46,604 bases of DNA from Escherichia phage vB_EcoS-UDF157lw, in the sequence record OQ243221, one strand, 5' to 3'. Every line of letters starts with the position of its first letter. Positions within the stretch are counted from its first letter, which is position 1. Made by a program: the position numbers and the translations under genes. Positions 3,298 to 44,870 of this stretch are shown piece by piece. The notes under the pieces were generated by a model. It was given only the letters and a program-made list of their open reading frames with translations, searched no databases and was not told where the DNA came from.

Positions 3298-3484
3298 ATC
3301 ACTAGGGAAAGTCAGATGCATTGTGTCTTACAATGATAAGAAGTTCAAAACTGGTAAATCTTACAGCATTTTGTCATCACCCGCATATGGTTGGGTTAAA
3401 TGTGAGTCAGAAGATGGGTGTATAGAGATGGTTAAAGATGGCAATGACATTGAGTTTGGTTACTTTGAGGTATTTTATGACTGA
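3290..3484 (+). CDS. Hypothetical protein (64 aa; start moved to internal ATG)
   Basis: ATG at 3290 overlaps the upstream stop (ATGACTAA); the track start at 3269 would overlap 29 nt. Confidence 0.45.
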   Translation: MTKSLGKVRCIVSYNDKKFKTGKSYSILSSPAYGWVKCESEDGCIEMVKDGNDIEFGYFEVFYD

Positions 3485-3541
3485 GCTATCAATCTGGTTC
3501 CTGGCTGGCATGTTGACGTGGATTTATTTCGTCGTCATGGC

Positions 3542-3570
3542 TTGACGAAAATGTTAAAAGTGGTTAGTAT
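3542..3570 (+). promoter_or_regulatory. Candidate sigma70-type promoter (TTGACG, 17 nt, TAGTAT) upstream of the tRNA region
   Basis: Hexamers and 17-nt spacing read directly; lies in a 286-bp non-coding gap. Confidence 0.3.
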
Positions 3571-3770: not shown

Positions 3771-3846
3771 GTTCTGCTGGCGTAACAGGATAACGCAGAG
3801 ACCTCCTAAGTCTCAGTTACTGGTTCGAGTCCAGTGCGGAACACCA
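3771..3846 (+). tRNA. tRNA-Arg (anticodon CCU, reads AGG)
   Basis: Hand-folded cloverleaf: acceptor GTTCTGC/GCGGAAC (one G-U), D-arm GCGT/ACGC with GG in loop, anticodon stem GAGAC/GTCTC with loop CTCCTAA (U33, CCT, A37), T-arm ACTGG-TTCGAGT-CCAGT, discriminator A, encoded CCA. Confidence 0.85.
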
Positions 3847-37483: not shown

Positions 37484-37510
37484 AGAGATTTCGCAAGGAT
37501 GCGATATAGT
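37468..37510 (+). promoter_or_regulatory. Composite promoter-like element: TAGCACgaaTTGCTAAA, 22 nt, TATAGT, leader CATCGAAACGAAGAGAG
   Basis: Canonical copy; spacer holds CGCAAGGATGCG. Confidence 0.55.
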
Positions 37511-37541
37511 TACTTCATCGAAACGAAGAGAGAGAAACAAA

Positions 37542-37736
37542 ATGACTACTATCTACACTGAAAAGCTGTACAAGTCACGCAAAACTGGTTATGAATATGA
37601 ATTAGCAATCACCCCTGAGGGTTATATTCTTGATGATGGAGACGGTTACTCATTCGAAGTTAGCCCAACATACAAAGATAATTTAGAGACTGTTAAAAAC
37701 GCATTCGGCGAAAAATTTGATGAGGTGTCAGAATAA
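37542..37736 (+). CDS. Hypothetical protein (64 aa)
   Basis: ATG after the conserved leader and RBS; the track ORF start lies upstream of the promoter element. Confidence 0.45.
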   Translation: MTTIYTEKLYKSRKTGYEYELAITPEGYILDDGDGYSFEVSPTYKDNLETVKNAFGEKFDEVSE

Positions 37737-37954
37737 TGAAATTAACCTTTGATAAGCAATGGGAACTATTTCAGGCAATGGTGGCGCAGGAGTTGAGTAA
37801 AGCTGGATATAAAAATGATGTTTGGGATTTAGCTTGGTGTCTTGATTATAGTTTCGAAGAGGATTATCTGAACACTGACATCGAAACATGGCGCGACAGA
37901 ATGATTGCTGATATCGAAGAAATGAAGAAAGATTGCCCGGAGGATTTTTCATGA
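37736..37954 (+). CDS. Hypothetical acidic protein (72 aa)
   Basis: Start overlaps upstream stop (TAATG). Confidence 0.45.
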   Translation: MKLTFDKQWELFQAMVAQELSKAGYKNDVWDLAWCLDYSFEEDYLNTDIETWRDRMIADIEEMKKDCPEDFS

Positions 37955-38151
37955 TTACTGCGACTTGCGTAATGACGAACGGCTCATTCACCCTGCTCAA
38001 TGAGTATGAATTCAAACTTGACCCGATTAATGACCAGGTTGAAATAGTTAGCGATGACGGATTTGCATGGAAGTTACATAATGAATTTGATGGGTACTAC
38101 GGGTGTAATGATGCGAAAGGTAAGCATGTAAGTTTTCTTGTTTATGAGTAA
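37951..38151 (+). CDS. Hypothetical protein (66 aa)
   Basis: ATG 37951 preceded by GGAGGA and overlapping the upstream stop (ATGA). Confidence 0.45.
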   Translation: MITATCVMTNGSFTLLNEYEFKLDPINDQVEIVSDDGFAWKLHNEFDGYYGCNDAKGKHVSFLVYE

Positions 38152-38153
38152 AT

Positions 38154-38195
38154 AGCACTTTTTGTTAAAACTAAAATACAAGGATGGATTATATT
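38154..38195 (+). promoter_or_regulatory. Composite promoter-like element: TAGCACtttttGTTAAA, 21 nt, TATATT
   Basis: Follows the stop of the previous gene. Confidence 0.45.
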
Positions 38196-38225
38196 AATTA
38201 CATTAGCAAATGAGAGGGTTAAGAG

Positions 38226-38351
38226 ATGAAAATTGTAGACAAAGAGATGTTCGAGATTGCGCAGTCTTTCGCAAATGACGCAGTTAAGACTGGATCTAAA
38301 TATTGCTGGATGTGCGCTCTAGAATCTTTAAAAATGGCTTACGGCCTATGA
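38226..38351 (+). CDS. Small hypothetical protein (41 aa)
   Basis: Hand-translated MKIVDKEMFEIAQSFANDAVKTGSKYCWMCALESLKMAYGL; stop overlaps next ATG (ATGA). Confidence 0.3.
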   Translation: MKIVDKEMFEIAQSFANDAVKTGSKYCWMCALESLKMAYGL

Positions 38352-38587
38352 TAGTTGAAACCGGACGCGCCGCTGTATGGGCGCATTGTGGAGATGCGGG
38401 ATTGCAGGATGACATCAAGATGATAGGTAAATACTTTGATATTGATGACATATCTGTAGTTTTCAATGGGAAGTTTAGTTATATGAACCAGCGGCCACGC
38501 AAGTATGTAAGAGTTCCAGCAACGCCTAGCCTCGCAATGTATCGTGAGGAAGGTAAGAAGATATTTAAGAAAGGTGCGAAGAAATGA
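38348..38587 (+). CDS. Hypothetical protein (79 aa)
   Basis: Translationally coupled chain of small ORFs. Confidence 0.4.
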   Translation: MIVETGRAAVWAHCGDAGLQDDIKMIGKYFDIDDISVVFNGKFSYMNQRPRKYVRVPATPSLAMYREEGKKIFKKGAKK

Positions 38588-38841
38588 ATTTACCTGGTCT
38601 GGATTTTGATGAGAGTAAGTATCAGGTTGTGTTTTTTGGTGAGAAGCCTTATCGGAAGATTCCTTTCTCTGAGTGGATTCCTCCGGACTACCTCGATGTA
38701 CTGGTGCAAATTGAGATTGGTAAAGCTGAGTTGATGTACTATTCGCCAGGTTGCAATATGATGATGCCTAGTGAGTATTCACCAGCAATTTCTGCTTTAG
38801 AAACTGAGTTTCTTGATTACTGGCTAAAAGAAGTAAAATAG
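38584..38841 (+). CDS. Hypothetical protein (85 aa)
   Basis: ATGA overlap with the previous gene. Confidence 0.45.
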   Translation: MNLPGLDFDESKYQVVFFGEKPYRKIPFSEWIPPDYLDVLVQIEIGKAELMYYSPGCNMMMPSEYSPAISALETEFLDYWLKEVK

Positions 38842-38881
38842 CACTTTTTGTTAAAACACATCGCCATGGATGGCGTATAGT
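38839..38881 (+). promoter_or_regulatory. Composite promoter-like element: TAGCACtttttGTTAAA, 22 nt, TATAGT, leader CATCGAAACGAGAG
   Basis: Spacer holds hairpin CGCCAT-gg-ATGGCG. Confidence 0.5.
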
Positions 38882-38908
38882 GTGTTCATCGAAACGAGAG
38901 ACGATTCA

Positions 38909-38977
38909 GATGAAAACATTACTACCGTTGATGGCTATGCCATTAACCTTTATAATCATGTACTTCATAATCTGCTA
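38909..38977 (+). CDS. Putative 22-aa hydrophobic peptide (MKTLLPLMAMPLTFIIMYFIIC)
   Basis: Immediately follows the conserved leader and RBS GAGAGACGA; entirely hydrophobic; too short for the ORF track. Confidence 0.25.
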
Positions 38978-38992
38978 ACAGGAAATTAAATA

Positions 38993-40126
38993 ATGGCTAT
39001 AGCTAAAATCACCAACGAAGAGTTAAAGCAAGAACTGGCTAACGGTATGACTAACAAGGCAATCGCAGAGAAGTACGGTATGAATATTCGTAACGTAGAG
39101 CTGCGTCGCAGCAAGTTGGCTAAGGCTGGGGATGGTCACGGTCGCGATGTGAGTAACCTAATTCCTCAGGGCTACATGGTTAAAGGTGTATCTAGCCTTG
39201 TTGATAATGATGGCAATGTGAAGTTGCAATGGGTTAAGTCCTCTATTGATGCAGAGAAGCTTGAGGAGATGATGAATCAAGCGCGAGAGGCATTCTCTAG
39301 CGAGCTACCAAAAGAAAAAGCAGTTAAATCTGAAGGTCTGAATTTTGATGAAGATACTTTAGCTATGTATCCAGTATTTGACCTTCACATTGGCGCAATG
39401 GCCCACAAGCATGAGTGCGGAGAAAACTACGACACAGCAACGGCAGAGAAAGTAATGAACGATTATTTTGACTACGCCGTACAGAAATCTCCAAATTCAA
39501 AGAATGCTGTACTAGTGCTAGGAGGTGATCTGCTTCATTATGATTCTTTGGAAGCCAAAACTCCAGCCAGTGGTCACATCCTGGACAGTGACAGTCGCTA
39601 CGCCAAGATTGTTTATGTTTGCATTCGAGCGGTTCGCCGCGCAATTCGAAACATGCTTAGCAAACATGAAAACGTAGAGGTTAAAGTTATATCTGGTAAT
39701 CATGATGAAAGTGGTATGGTTTGGTTGCGGGCTGCGCTTGCTGCATTTTATGAGGAAGAGCCACGCGTTAGTATTGATGTTAGTCCCGCGGCAATGATGG
39801 TAACTAAGTTTGGTTCTACAATGCTTGGTTTCACTCACGGGCATCAAATGCGTAAAGCTGATACTCGCCTTTCGGTTATGGCTACTGACTGGCGACGTGA
39901 CTTTGGTTTAAGTGATTATGTATACACCCACTCAGGCCACTGGCATTCACAGAAGATTACAGAGACAAATCTTGGTATTGATGAGGTTCATGGTCAGCTT
40001 GGTTCACCAGATGCATATAGTGCGAATGGTGGATGGCGCTCACAAAGGCAGGCCGCGGTAATCATCTATCATAAAGAGTTTGGTGAGGTTGGTCGCTTTA
40101 TCTGCCGTCCAGAAATGTTCAAATAA
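38993..40126 (+). CDS. Calcineurin-like metallophosphoesterase with N-terminal HTH-like domain (377 aa)
   Basis: Phosphoesterase motifs D-L-H (FDLHIG), GGDLLH, GNHDE, GH.H (HSGHWH); N-terminal about 110 aa with HTH-like TNKAIAEKYGMNIRNVELRRSKL. Confidence 0.8.
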   Translation: MAIAKITNEELKQELANGMTNKAIAEKYGMNIRNVELRRSKLAKAGDGHGRDVSNLIPQGYMVKGVSSLVDNDGNVKLQWVKSSIDAEKLEEMMNQAREAFSSELPKEKAVKSEGLNFDEDTLAMYPVFDLHIGAMAHKHECGENYDTATAEKVMNDYFDYAVQKSPNSKNAVLVLGGDLLHYDSLEAKTPASGHILDSDSRYAKIVYVCIRAVRRAIRNMLSKHENVEVKVISGNHDESGMVWLRAALAAFYEEEPRVSIDVSPAAMMVTKFGSTMLGFTHGHQMRKADTRLSVMATDWRRDFGLSDYVYTHSGHWHSQKITETNLGIDEVHGQLGSPDAYSANGGWRSQRQAAVIIYHKEFGEVGRFICRPEMFK

Positions 40127-40145
40127 TATCACTTTTTGTTAAAGC
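40127..40145 (+). promoter_or_regulatory. Motif variant TATCACtttttGTTAAA without clear -10
   Basis: Upstream half degenerate (TATCAC); no TATAGT-like hexamer at the expected spacing. Confidence 0.25.
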
Positions 40146-40191
40146 CCTTCGAGGCTTTTGAGATGCGTCAGCTACAGATATAGGAATCAAA

Positions 40192-40389
40192 ATGATTACA
40201 GAGATGATTTTAGTTGCAAGCCTTTCATCTCCATTGGTATCTCAACAGTATTGTGAACTTGGAAAAGAGATTTACCATGAAGGAGTGGAATTAAGAACGG
40301 TTGTTGATTGGCTTAATCACAGCACGATGAATATTGATGATAAAAAGATTGTCCTTGAGTGCTATATAGTGGAGTCAAATAAAGTCTAA
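40192..40389 (+). CDS. Hypothetical protein (65 aa)
   Basis: ORF in track; the stop is followed by TAGCAC motif. Confidence 0.45.
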   Translation: MITEMILVASLSSPLVSQQYCELGKEIYHEGVELRTVVDWLNHSTMNIDDKKIVLECYIVESNKV

Positions 40390-40432
40390 ATAGCACGAAT
40401 TGCTAAAACGAAAATCAAAAGATGGGGTATAG
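40390..40432 (+). promoter_or_regulatory. Composite promoter-like element: TAGCACgaaTTGCTAAA, 22 nt, TATAGT, leader ...AAACGAGAGGA
   Basis: Hairpin GATGGGGTA-TAG-TTACCCCATC spans the -10. Confidence 0.55.
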
Positions 40433-40465
40433 TTACCCCATCTAAACAAACGAGAGGATACAAAG

Positions 40466-40651
40466 ATGGCTAAATTCACACAATCAGATGCACAAATCGA
40501 AGTTAAAGATGTTGGTTTTGGTAAGACCTTTAAGATTGCGCAGGCATACGGCTCTAGCGAAGAAGATGTAAAAGTTGACACTATCAATCTTACTGCTAAG
40601 AATGCTCGTGAAATTGCCTACGCAATCCTAGATGCACTTGGAGAGCGATAA
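40466..40651 (+). CDS. Hypothetical protein (61 aa)
   Basis: RBS gagagga; canonical promoter element upstream. Confidence 0.45.
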   Translation: MAKFTQSDAQIEVKDVGFGKTFKIAQAYGSSEEDVKVDTINLTAKNAREIAYAILDALGER

Positions 40652-41139: not shown

Positions 41140-41355
41140 ATGAAGCATTTCTATGACGCAGCCGCCTTGTCCGGTAGCGGAGTAGCTATGGGTGGCGGTT
41201 TATCTGACAACACAATCATCGGCATTATTGGCTTAGTTATCGCCGTATGCTTTGGTATTTTTGGCGCATGGCTGCGCTGGCGTGACAGTAAGGCGCTCCA
41301 TAAAGCACTTGAAGATGGGGATATTCGAGAGGCAATGAGAATCAGGAGTAAATAA
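41140..41355 (+). CDS. Holin (71 aa; pinholin-like)
   Basis: Small protein with Gly-rich segment and hydrophobic TMD IIGIIGLVIAVCFGIFGAWL, charged C-terminus; directly upstream of a SAR endolysin. Confidence 0.65.
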   Translation: MKHFYDAAALSGSGVAMGGGLSDNTIIGIIGLVIAVCFGIFGAWLRWRDSKALHKALEDGDIREAMRIRSK

Positions 41356-41837
41356 TGAGCATTAAAAATAAGGTAATTGGTTCTGCTGTGGCTGGTGCCA
41401 TGGCTCTGGCGGTTCCGTTCCTTAATGAGCATGAAGGCGTTGAGTACAAGCCTTACAAGGATGTTGCTGGGGTATGGACTATTTGCGCAGGAATCACTGG
41501 TCCTGACGTTATTCTGGGCAAGGTTTACACACAGCGAGAGTGTGATGCACTACTTATGAAGCACTTGTCAATTCATCGTGCCGCTGTTGATAAAGCGTTA
41601 AAGGTTGATGTTCCAGTTAGCACCAGGGCTGCCTTGTATAGTTTCTCATTCAACGTGGGAACTAATGCGATGCGCAAATCAACGGCAATGAGGAAGATTA
41701 ATTCCGGAGATATCTATGGCGGTTGCAATGCCTTAAGGCTATTTAACAAGATTACAATTAATGGTAAAAAGGTTGTATCTAAGGGTTTGGATAATAGACG
41801 TGACGCGGAGGTGAAGATATGCGTTTCGGAGTTGTAG
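41355..41837 (+). CDS. SAR endolysin (lysozyme, P21 R-like, 160 aa)
   Basis: N-terminal Gly/Ala-rich signal-anchor (VIGSAVAGAMALAVPF) followed by EGVEYKPYKDVAGVWTICAGITG...YSFSFNVG lysozyme core closely resembling phage P21 R. Confidence 0.9.
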   Translation: MSIKNKVIGSAVAGAMALAVPFLNEHEGVEYKPYKDVAGVWTICAGITGPDVILGKVYTQRECDALLMKHLSIHRAAVDKALKVDVPVSTRAALYSFSFNVGTNAMRKSTAMRKINSGDIYGGCNALRLFNKITINGKKVVSKGLDNRRDAEVKICVSEL

Positions 41838-42223
41838 TTCTGGCAATTATCTTGCTGACAGGGTGCTCTGCTATGTCAGCCATTTCTGATTTCTTACCAG
41901 TAAAGGATGGCGTAGAGGCAACCGCGCAGGTTGGTGAGTCCAACCAGAAAACAGGAGTTGGATTGTCAAATCAAACAGACAAATCTAGCTCAACAGAAAG
42001 CGACATGCGCAACTCAACTAACAGAGACGTAGATTCATCAAGCCAGAAAAAGACAGCCGCTACAGGACTATCAGCCAACACAATAACAGCTGAAAAGATT
42101 GAAATTCATAGCACTGAAAATTCTGGCTTTGACTCTTTAGTCTGGGGTATTCTGGCTGGATTAGTTTCAGGTTTGCTAACTTACTTCGCTTTAAGATTCG
42201 CAGGAAACAAAAAAGGAGCCTAA
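41819..42223 (+). CDS. Unimolecular spanin (u-spanin, T1 gp11-like, 134 aa)
   Basis: N-terminal lipoprotein signal with lipobox LTGC and C-terminal TMD LVWGILAGLVSGLLTYFAL, the defining u-spanin topology. Confidence 0.75.
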   Translation: MRFGVVVLAIILLTGCSAMSAISDFLPVKDGVEATAQVGESNQKTGVGLSNQTDKSSSTESDMRNSTNRDVDSSSQKKTAATGLSANTITAEKIEIHSTENSGFDSLVWGILAGLVSGLLTYFALRFAGNKKGA

Positions 42224-44160: not shown

Positions 44161-44203
44161 TATTATCATCTCTCTCTAAATGCCCCCGAAGGGGCTTGAC
44201 TAT

Positions 44204-44383
44204 TTACTTGATACGAACTTCAATCATCTGGCCTTTATGAGGAAGATACAGCTTTGCGCGACCTCTAATCATTACGGTGATGATATTCTCCTTAAGGTCA
44301 ACGTGAAGTACTTTGCGGAACAGTGGCCCCATTTTTACCATCATGCCAGGTTTGATGTTTTCGATAGTAGTCATGATATCCAT
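44204..44383 (-). CDS. Hypothetical protein (59 aa)
   Basis: Hand-translated MDIMTTIENIKPGMMVKMGPLFRKVLHVDLKENIITVMIRGRAKLYLPHKGQMIEVRIK; preceded by promoter element and CATCGAAACGA leader. Confidence 0.4.
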   Translation of the reverse strand: MDIMTTIENIKPGMMVKMGPLFRKVLHVDLKENIITVMIRGRAKLYLPHKGQMIEVRIK

Positions 44384-44421
44384 TTTTTAGCCCTTTTAAT
44401 GTATTTCGTTTCGATGAAGAG

Positions 44422-44465
44422 AATATATCAATTTTTGTTGTTAAGTCCTTTAGCAAAAAGTGCTA
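44422..44465 (-). promoter_or_regulatory. Composite promoter-like element (minus): TAGCACtttttGCTAAA, 23 nt, TGaTATATT, leader CATCGAAACGA
   Basis: Reverse complement read directly. Confidence 0.5.
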
Positions 44466-44582
44466 TTAAAGACCAACCAGACATTTGCCAACTACAACAG
44501 CGATTGCGCCCATGAAGCCAAAGAAACCAAACTTAATTACTTGTTCCATTACCGCATCAACTGCTTTAGAGATGTTTTTCAT
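44466..44582 (-). CDS. Small hydrophobic protein (38 aa, MKNISKAVDAVMEQVIKFGFFGFMGAIAVVVGKCLVGL)
   Basis: Strong RBS AAGGTGA; C-terminal TM-like segment; the track N-terminal extension translates through a terminator hairpin and is rejected. Confidence 0.35.
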   Translation of the reverse strand: MKNISKAVDAVMEQVIKFGFFGFMGAIAVVVGKCLVGL

Positions 44583-44612: not shown

Positions 44613-44663
44613 GGAAACAAATATACCCGCCGAAGCGGGTACTGTCATTAGCAAAAAGTGCTA
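44613..44663 (-). promoter_or_regulatory. Overlapping terminator and promoter-like element (minus): TAGCACtttttGCTAA, hairpin ACCCGC-ttcg-GCGGGT, TATATT
   Basis: The hairpin and U-rich tract sit inside the spacer between the palindrome and the -10-like hexamer. Confidence 0.45.
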
Positions 44664-44870
44664 TTTTTTTAAGTGCCCTGGCGCATAGCATTTTCCATCC
44701 TTCTTATGCAAAACCCACCCAGCATATTTAAGTTGCCTTGCACAATCAGAAAAGTTCTCGCCCGCAGCGTCCGTATAGTGTGGCATAAAATAAGAACCAT
44801 CATCATTTGACTCAGTTGAGCACTTCTTACAGTCGCAATAAACAGCGATGGAATAACCTGAAACAATCAT
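44661..44870 (-). CDS. Hypothetical Cys-rich small protein (69 aa)
   Basis: CDCKKC ... C ... C pattern suggests a zinc-binding protein. Confidence 0.45.
   Translation of the reverse strand: MIVSGYSIAVYCDCKKCSTESNDDGSYFMPHYTDAAGENFSDCARQLKYAGWVLHKKDGKCYAPGHLKK

Follow-up and report, generated by a model that had tools for sequence, protein, structure and literature searches.

A conserved 22-codon open reading frame upstream of a metallophosphoesterase gene in Rogue1- and T1-like phages, predicted to encode a single-helix membrane peptide

Escherichia phage vB_EcoS-UDF157lw (sequence record OQ243221; the complete stretch of 46,604 nucleotides that we analyzed is referred to here as the window) carries a micro-ORF of 22 codons that encodes the peptide MKTLLPLMAMPLTFIIMYFIIC, situated between an 85-aa gene and a gene for a 377-aa protein with a helix-turn-helix and a metallophosphoesterase part (Table 1). 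The frame reads ATG(38910) AAA ACA ... TGC TAA(38976-38978). An initial annotation of this DNA had recognized the 22-codon ORF, whose existence we confirm, but had placed it at 38909-38977, one base too low. Across positions 37500-40500, the window matches Enterobacteria phage vB_EcoS_Rogue1 at 99.5% identity and both AHP24 and AHS24 at 99.4%; judged from its sequence, the phage is a Rogue1-like member of the Drexlerviridae (Rogunavirinae), T1-like virulent siphoviruses. The T1-like phages are classical model and nuisance phages, and hundreds of their genomes have been sequenced. The 377-aa protein matches the phrog_704 profile with an E-value of 1.7e-155, and its match to the Pfam Metallophos profile is weak and sub-threshold.

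Table 1. Coordinates of the micro-ORF, the 38-aa ORF and the associated features in the window.
Feature	Position	Strand	Remarks
T1-type repeat copies	1580, 2423, 4660, 19900, 35071, 37467, 38152, 38838, 40126, 40390	+	
T1-type repeat copies	27078, 44466, 44664, 45626, 46461	-	
Upstream 85-aa gene	38584-38841	+	phrog_4596 (function unassigned); TAG stop inside the promoter repeat
T1-type repeat before the micro-ORF	38838-38855	+	ATAGCACTTTTTGTTAAA; inverted repeat TAGCA-N5-TGTTA; exact match to consensus aaATAGCACnnnTTGnTAAAA
Short inverted repeat	38862-38875	+	CGCCATGGATGGCG; spacer between repeat and -10
Overlapping 39-aa ORF	38870-38989	+	other frame (AHP24_45, SADIYA_48); judged spurious
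-10-like hexamer	38876-38881	+	TATAGT; inferred transcription start predicted at ~38888
Conserved leader	38887-38900	+	CATCGAAACGAGAG, exact; includes Shine-Dalgarno-like GAGAG at 38896-38900
Micro-ORF	38910-38978	+	22 codons and TAA; ATG 38910-38912, TAA 38976-38978
Sigma-70-like match in the micro-ORF	38928-38956	+	TTGATG-17-TATAAT; overlaps the AHP42 promoter feature (about 38918-38955)
Shine-Dalgarno of the phosphoesterase gene	38980-38985	+	AGGAAA, 2 nt past the micro-ORF stop; other types read TAAGGA
Downstream 377-aa gene	38993-40126	+	N-terminal helix-turn-helix and metallophosphoesterase; phrog_704 'DNA repair exonuclease'
59-aa gene	44383-44204	-	phrog_8121
38-aa ORF	44466-44582	-	MKNISKAVDAVMEQVIKFGFFGFMGAIAVVVGKCLVGL; phrog_11986 (function unassigned); ATG 44582, TAA 44468-44466
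Cassette of the 38-aa ORF	44620-44664	-	repeat 44664-44647; ATGACA-17-TATATT 44648-44620; spacer hairpin GTACCCGCTTCGGCGGGTAT

A promoter cassette precedes the micro-ORF, and its copies in the window align as ATAGCAC-N3-TTG-N-TAAA, about 20 nt that often form a hairpin, TATAGT or TATATT, 5-6 bases, CATCGAAACGA, GAGAGG, 8 nt and ATG. With up to two mismatches allowed, the leader CATCGAAACGAGAG is found six times in the window, as opposed to 0.22 copies expected. The first start codon follows the repeat at a distance of 66-85 nt at 15 oriented copies, the micro-ORF having a value of 72 nt and the 38-aa ORF one of 82 nt. Since the distance of the micro-ORF falls within this range and the GAGAG(G)-8 nt-ATG geometry is shared with the other copies, its ATG sits where the cassette predicts a start codon, as the initial annotation had proposed from the leader and the ribosome-binding site. 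Its description of the promoter as canonical was too strong, because the hexamers TTGTTA and TATAGT are spaced by 22 bp and no -35 hexamer is found at 17 bp, where the sequence reads AAAACA; a consensus scan returned no match there.

Both small ORFs are preceded by the 21-nt direct repeat published for phage TLS, in the same orientation and at distances of 72 and 82 nt compared to the ~76 nt described there (PMC11447400). The TLS genome paper lists 21 copies of aaATAGCACnnnTTGnTAAAA upstream of start codons, mentions comparable repeats for T1, Rtp and Rogue1, and does not decide between a stoperator, an enhancer site and an UP element as their function (PMC11447400). The micro-ORF, the -10 hexamer and the CATCGAAACGA leader are absent from that account (PMC11447400).

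In its general form, the T1-type repeat is an inverted repeat, TAGCA-N5-TGCTA, whose TAG is often the stop codon of the preceding gene. If TATAGT is taken as the -10 element, the center of the repeat lies ~42 bp upstream of the predicted start, and a -35 hexamer is absent. A position ~42 bp upstream of the start is where class II activators bind. These features suggest that the cassette promoters might depend on a phage-encoded dimeric DNA-binding protein. A terminator-like hairpin is often present in the spacer between repeat and -10 element (copies 40126, 44664, and 45626). The N-terminus of the 377-aa phosphoesterase (38993-39150) is helix-turn-helix-like, and two PHROG families, 'transcriptional regulator, D5-like' and 'late transcriptional activator', match it faintly (E 0.05-0.14); this part of the protein is a possible candidate for binding the T1-type repeat. 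Further cassettes are followed by very short hydrophilic ORFs at 2499-2627 (+; 42 aa, distance 76 nt) and at 38226-38351 (+; 41 aa, distance 74 nt), the latter being annotated as Rogue1_0054, and small first cistrons seem to be common behind the T1-type cassette. Another hydrophobic mini-ORF (35 aa, MAMTLSLVTLRYFMTELSIWFLAGMLTWIYFVVMA) is located at 3438-3545 (+), just upstream of a tRNA gene at 3771-3843.

The 38-aa ORF had been presented as a similar hydrophobic peptide gene that carries the full conserved leader. Its coordinates are correct, but it lies on the minus strand, and its leader CATCAAGAAGA is a degenerate version rather than a full copy. The two peptides are unrelated in sequence, and only the C-terminal half of the 38-aa peptide is hydrophobic (GRAVY 1.18 vs 1.86 for the 22-aa peptide). 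The 38-aa ORF possesses a strong AAGGTGA ribosome-binding site and a TATATT -10 element, and it takes up the interval between two promoter cassettes. Its product matches PHROG 11986 over profile positions 23-60 of 60 (E=1.3e-26), and is present in 20 Rogunavirus records only, in all of which the protein is 100% identical. A search of 1.8 billion representatives recovered its own 60-aa annotation as the sole relative. Its DNA does not vary among the 20 records either, with zero differences in e4/1c, JK06 and Rogue1, so that it offers no measure of coding constraint; beyond the repeat, e4/1c and JK06 carry unrelated upstream sequence. A plausible view of this ORF is that of a promoter-borne accessory gene, an invariant, genus-restricted orphan.

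In order to trace relatives of the micro-ORF, IMG/VR loci were fetched around homologues of the downstream 377-aa gene (n=80). Of these 80 loci, 32 have an intact hydrophobic ATG ORF of 22-26 codons immediately 5' of the phosphoesterase gene, and two more have one that an HNH gene separates from the phosphoesterase. Searches with tblastn using the individual peptide types returned 28, 91, 70, 39 and 3 INPHARED records (about 230 phage records). The phages in question infect Escherichia, Shigella, Citrobacter, Salmonella, Enterobacter and Klebsiella, and they belong to four subfamilies, the Tunavirinae, Braunvirinae, Rogunavirinae and Tempevirinae (the T1, Rtp, Rogue1 and TLS groups). Besides the peptide of the window, we distinguish the types of e4/1c (MKTLLPLLAVPVTFIIMYFITC), of the Rtp group (MKSLILVALVPLFSFTILYFIVMN), of T1 (MKLYFAVVLTPLISFSVMYFIIM) and of the TLS relatives (MRYISVILLPPVIAWVIMYSVVMN), and three further ones (MFGYFGVVFTPVIAFTLIYLIVM; MRYALIPLATLIAVVALFQTIMIYN; MWRLFALPFPVIIATAIMYKIIMLGA). 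DNA identity between types amounts to 54-68%, with the two Rogue-type variants (window and e4/1c) at 91%, and all eight types keep the ATG, the open frame, a length of 22-26 codons and the TAA stop. The likeness of the peptides goes beyond their composition for the pairs of the window type with the T1 and Rtp types (shuffle p<=0.0005), and is less certain for the two most divergent types. The columns P11, F/W15 and Y19 are near-invariant, and M1, P11, F/W15, Y19 and M/C23 form the most conserved set. The conserved positions are spaced by four and thus form a stripe on one side of a helix, a pattern noticed post hoc; a global test for helical periodicity was not significant (p=0.27).

The genomic slot is constant as well: the micro-ORF is flanked by the phrog_4596 gene and the helix-turn-helix/metallophosphoesterase gene, unless an HNH insertion intervenes. 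In T1, Rtp and most others, its first codon shares bases with the stop of the preceding phrog_4596 gene (ATGA or TAATG). In every case, its TAA stands at the Shine-Dalgarno sequence of the downstream gene (TAAGGA; TAACAGGA and TAACAGGAAA in the window), 7-14 nt before the next ATG. Such junctions are typical of genes packed into phage operons with tight translational coupling. The Rogunavirus genomes have the promoter cassette (38838-38909) inserted at the first of these junctions, between the phrog_4596 stop and the micro-ORF ATG. Sf12 (L012) and phiEB49 (L014) are without the cassette, and their tract of 96-100% identity to window positions 38910-39160 begins exactly at the ATG and ends ~250 nt further on, inside the helix-turn-helix part of the phosphoesterase, with flanks of ~30% (unaligned) and 60-70%; the ATG therefore marks the boundary of a mosaic module.

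The slot also records losses and rearrangements. In TLS and FSL SP-126, an HNH endonuclease gene lies between the phosphoesterase gene and a micro-ORF that is intact (MRYIYVIIFPPVIAWVIVYFLVMGLS). Two loci look like natural knockouts: L037 (about 1413-1487) has a TAA at codon 3 (MR*ISVILLPPVIAWVIMYAVVMN), and in L011 (about 1380-1485) a repeat/promoter cassette replaces the N-terminal half, so that the start is lost and a remnant, ...GIMYELIMNN, is left. The micro-ORF is missing from more distant lineages and from loci L025, L036 and L041, which keep the phosphoesterase with a ribosome-binding site of its own. In view of these losses, the micro-ORF is therefore accessory. A fusion or frameshift with the phosphoesterase was considered and discarded: the distance between the two ATG codons varies from 82 to 97 nt and takes all three residues modulo 3, so that there is no consistent frame relation. 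In the group of locus L076 (also L077-L086), whose phosphoesterase is ~48% identical, a 68-aa two-helix protein of the Imm_superinfect family (PF14373, E=3e-12) is encoded directly upstream (1256-1462 in L076), and a small membrane protein thus occupies the slot there too.

Whether the frame is coding was assessed by counting substitutions along minimum spanning trees within each type, 67 in total for the 22-codon frame. Thirty-one of these are synonymous and 36 non-synonymous in the micro-ORF frame (47% synonymous), whereas the same substitutions are synonymous to only 25% and 21% in the other two frames, with ~25% being expected (binomial p=1.3e-4). The implied dN/dS of ~0.4 is only moderate. 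Individual changes illustrate the trend: the conserved C-terminus of OzMSK has three silent changes, TAC->TAT, GTA->GTG and AAT->AAC, and relative to the window, AHP42 and AKS96 show M8L, M10V and L12V. The 22-codon ORF thus behaves as a protein-coding gene under purifying selection, a view supported by these counts.

The real gene at this position might instead be the overlapping 39-aa frame, which is open in the Rogue-type phages and has been called by gene finders. We hold this to be highly improbable. The ATG of this frame lies between the repeat and the -10 hexamer, that is upstream of the predicted transcription start; the frame is startless in Sf12 and phiEB49 and nonexistent in e4/1c, T1, Rtp and TLS. 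The AHP42/AKS96 substitutions are radical when read in the 39-aa frame (D-to-A, Y-to-G, A-to-T, I-to-S), and no more than 21% of the substitutions are synonymous in it.

A further possibility is that the segment is untranslated and conserved as DNA or RNA (a sigma-70-like promoter, a hairpin, a spacer), its open frame being a by-product of T-rich sequence. The match TTGATG-17-TATAAT within the micro-ORF indeed fits 10 of 12 consensus positions, and a promoter is annotated there in AHP42. Moreover, the +2 frame is also mostly stop-free, and hydrophobic mini-ORFs (counted as ATG ORFs of 18-50 codons with a GRAVY of at least 1.4) occur by chance, with seven observed in the window vs 3.9 on average after shuffling. 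Taken alone, a hydrophobic mini-ORF is consequently within chance; the position of the micro-ORF and its conservation across phages exceed chance. We nevertheless consider an untranslated segment quite improbable. The promoter match is a feature of the Rogue type alone that T1 and Rtp lack, no frame but that of the micro-ORF shows the synonymous excess, and ATG, stop and length have been kept at 54-68% identity, whereas in a neutral simulation with 35% of sites changed the ATG, the open frame and the stop were retained in only ~3% of trials per lineage. An Rfam scan gave no match to the micro-ORF; it reported only a tRNA elsewhere in the window and a sub-threshold chance match.

The peptide types are strongly hydrophobic, with GRAVY values of 1.5-2.1 (1.86 for the 22-aa peptide of the window) and 0-2 charged residues. 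The 22-aa peptide is predicted to form one hydrophobic helix of the single-pass membrane type. Membrane-insertion energies summed over 19 residues range from -2.1 to +3.6 kcal/mol among the types, several being near zero or positive; the sums are borderline in some types because of prolines. Scans of the eight peptide types against Pfam, NCBIfam and PHROG returned no match. Our literature search found no ribosome-profiling study of T1, and neither the 22-codon nor the 38-aa ORF is mentioned in the genome papers of Rogue1, AHP24 and TLS.

These data lend themselves to a model that we regard as probable, in which the micro-ORF specifies a translated one-helix inner-membrane micro-protein that is co-expressed with the phosphoesterase gene, probably binds a membrane partner and acts in trans. 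In most relatives, the overlap of the ATG with the upstream stop codon (ATGA) would have the micro-ORF translated by coupling. The 70-nt T1-type cassette of Rogunavirus, with its repeat, -10 hexamer and CATCGAAACGA leader, is placed directly before the micro-ORF, which would make it the first cistron of a transcript running into the phosphoesterase gene. The peptide would then enter the inner membrane with its N-terminus inside, an orientation that we infer from the N-terminal Lys/Arg. Its action in trans would be exerted through the stripe in the C-terminal half, Pro11, Phe/Trp15, Tyr19 and Met/Cys23, which probably packs against another membrane protein in the manner of small bacterial membrane regulators. 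The coupling to the phosphoesterase would be a by-product of operon packing.

A different role, which we deem unlikely, would be one in cis. Here, the micro-ORF would be a leader cistron from which the phosphoesterase gene receives its ribosomes, through termination-reinitiation or unmasking of its start, or the mRNA would be drawn to the membrane by the hydrophobic nascent chain, and the released peptide would be functionless. The micro-ORF is found immediately upstream of the phosphoesterase wherever no HNH gene is inserted, with its TAA placed directly at the downstream Shine-Dalgarno sequence, and an RNA structure prediction for the window pairs codons 8-12 (38932-38945) with the phosphoesterase start (38988-39005; MFE -24.8 kcal/mol, z=-3.07). 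This pairing is not kept in the family, however, with z-scores of +0.35 in T1, +1.73 in Rtp and -0.01 in e4/1c, and an RNA structure masking the phosphoesterase start was therefore rejected as a family feature. Also arguing against a role in cis, the micro-ORF is intact in TLS and FSL SP-126 though uncoupled from the phosphoesterase; conversely, a phosphoesterase gene with its own ribosome-binding site is kept both where the micro-ORF was lost (L011, L037) and where it never existed (L025, L036, L041). Simple coupling would, in addition, need no conserved P11, F/W15 and Y19. If the micro-ORF served only the translation of the phosphoesterase, its interest would be confined to annotation. A regulatory leader or attenuator was likewise dismissed, as the structure is seen only in the window and the linkage is broken in TLS, L011 and L037.

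A known system of this kind is SecM-SecA, where a hydrophobic upstream cistron localizes or couples the synthesis of the next gene. In both cases, a short ORF lies immediately 5' of a larger gene to which it is translationally linked. Unlike the SecM-SecA pair, the micro-ORF and the phosphoesterase gene are separable in nature in both directions, and the micro-peptide is without a known arrest motif.

The peptide might also be a membrane-perturbing toxin of the Ibs/ShoB/TisB kind that depolarizes or permeabilizes the inner membrane early in infection and thereby causes host shut-off or exclusion of superinfecting phage, a proposal that we find rather improbable. The Ibs/ShoB/TisB type I toxins of E. 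coli consist of 18-30 residues and are almost entirely hydrophobic. The micro-peptide fits this class by its size and hydrophobicity, and the slot is held in distant lineages by the Imm_superinfect protein. On the other hand, comparison with IbsC from the MG1655 record gave shuffle p-values of 0.03-0.88 for seven types, only T1 being below 0.05 and this without correction, and the Pfam, NCBIfam and PHROG scans offered no toxin match. Homology to Ibs through the resemblance 'LISFS.Y' was accordingly discarded, the comparison with IbsC being not significant. Type I toxin genes are overlapped by an antisense RNA gene; a consensus scan of 38900-38990 revealed no antisense promoter, and the micro-ORF resides inside a co-directional phage operon with translational coupling. 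The position-specific conservation of Pro, Phe and Tyr, in turn, suggests a specific contact over generic membrane damage. As for the Imm_superinfect protein, it resembles the micro-peptide as a small phage membrane protein in the same slot, but it comprises 68 aa and two helices, and no micro-peptide matches the PF14373 profile; the shared slot is thus a positional hint only.

Returning to a micro-protein that binds a membrane partner in trans, the partner might be one of the host. As a tentative extension, the peptide could be a conserved host-directed effector of T1-like phages whose Pro-Phe/Trp-Tyr face docks on a protein of the host inner membrane, for instance a transporter, a component of injection or uptake, or a defence sensor bound to the membrane, and thereby blocks superinfection or disarms a host function. 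If true, it would rank with the smallest known phage effectors, carried by the classical phage T1, and targeting of a host membrane protein would offer a minimal, easily synthesised probe or inhibitor. The initial annotation had named exclusion, holin modulation and transporter inhibition as possible activities of such peptides. A role as a holin modulator finds no counterpart in the gene order, as the lysis cassette (holin, endolysin, spanin; 41140-42223) is situated 2.2 kb downstream of the micro-ORF, beyond a terminator and in another transcription unit, and the 38-aa ORF lies on the opposite strand.

Enterobacteria possess a number of tiny single-helix membrane regulators, among them KdpF (29 aa), MgtS (31 aa) and CydX (37 aa). 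Like the predicted micro-peptide, these regulators are tiny, have one transmembrane helix and are often unannotated, and they pack on a larger membrane protein. The pairs of AcrZ (49 aa) with AcrB and of MgrB (47 aa) with PhoQ are described examples (PMC7267776, 10.1101/2022.12.22.521624). The micro-peptide differs from the AcrZ/MgrB group in being shorter (22-26 aa), phage-encoded and without Pfam or NCBIfam similarity. The family is new and widely conserved, and the kind to which it belongs, small phage membrane peptides, is already known.

The expectation that such small genes are routinely missed by annotation holds true for the 22-codon ORF. It is unannotated in all eight inspected records in which no other annotated gene overlaps it (Rogue1, T1, phiEB49, AugustePiccard, Chapo, OzMSK, TLS and Motto), and an exact look-up of five peptides (window, Rtp type, T1, L038 type and L016 type) in a collection of ~15 billion proteins found them absent. 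In AHP24, AHS24, Sadiya and AKS96, the annotated gene is instead an overlapping frame of 39-46 aa that is not conserved. This gene is conserved across four subfamilies and yet present in no annotation checked, which illustrates that genes of less than 30 codons can completely escape phage annotation. The same expectation does not generally hold for the 38-aa ORF, which is listed with 38 aa in AKS96 and AHP42, with 41 aa in AHS24 and with 60 aa in e4/1c; in other records, an ORF on the opposite strand is annotated in its place.

Several records thus carry a wrong frame or strand in these regions: AHP24_45 and SADIYA_48, the over-extended endY of TLS, JK_51 and Rogue1_0067. In TLS (L097, AY308796 39965-40636), the start of endY, the HNH endonuclease gene, is annotated 190 nt upstream, overlapping the previous gene and, out of frame, the micro-ORF; the true endY start is likely the ATG that overlaps the micro-ORF stop (MNYNDLFSYENG...). 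The opposite-strand ORFs JK_51 (L096, JK06) and Rogue1_0067 (L094), which like 44180-44515 (+) in the window lie across the 38-aa ORF, a promoter cassette and the 59-aa phrog_8121 gene, are probably spurious.
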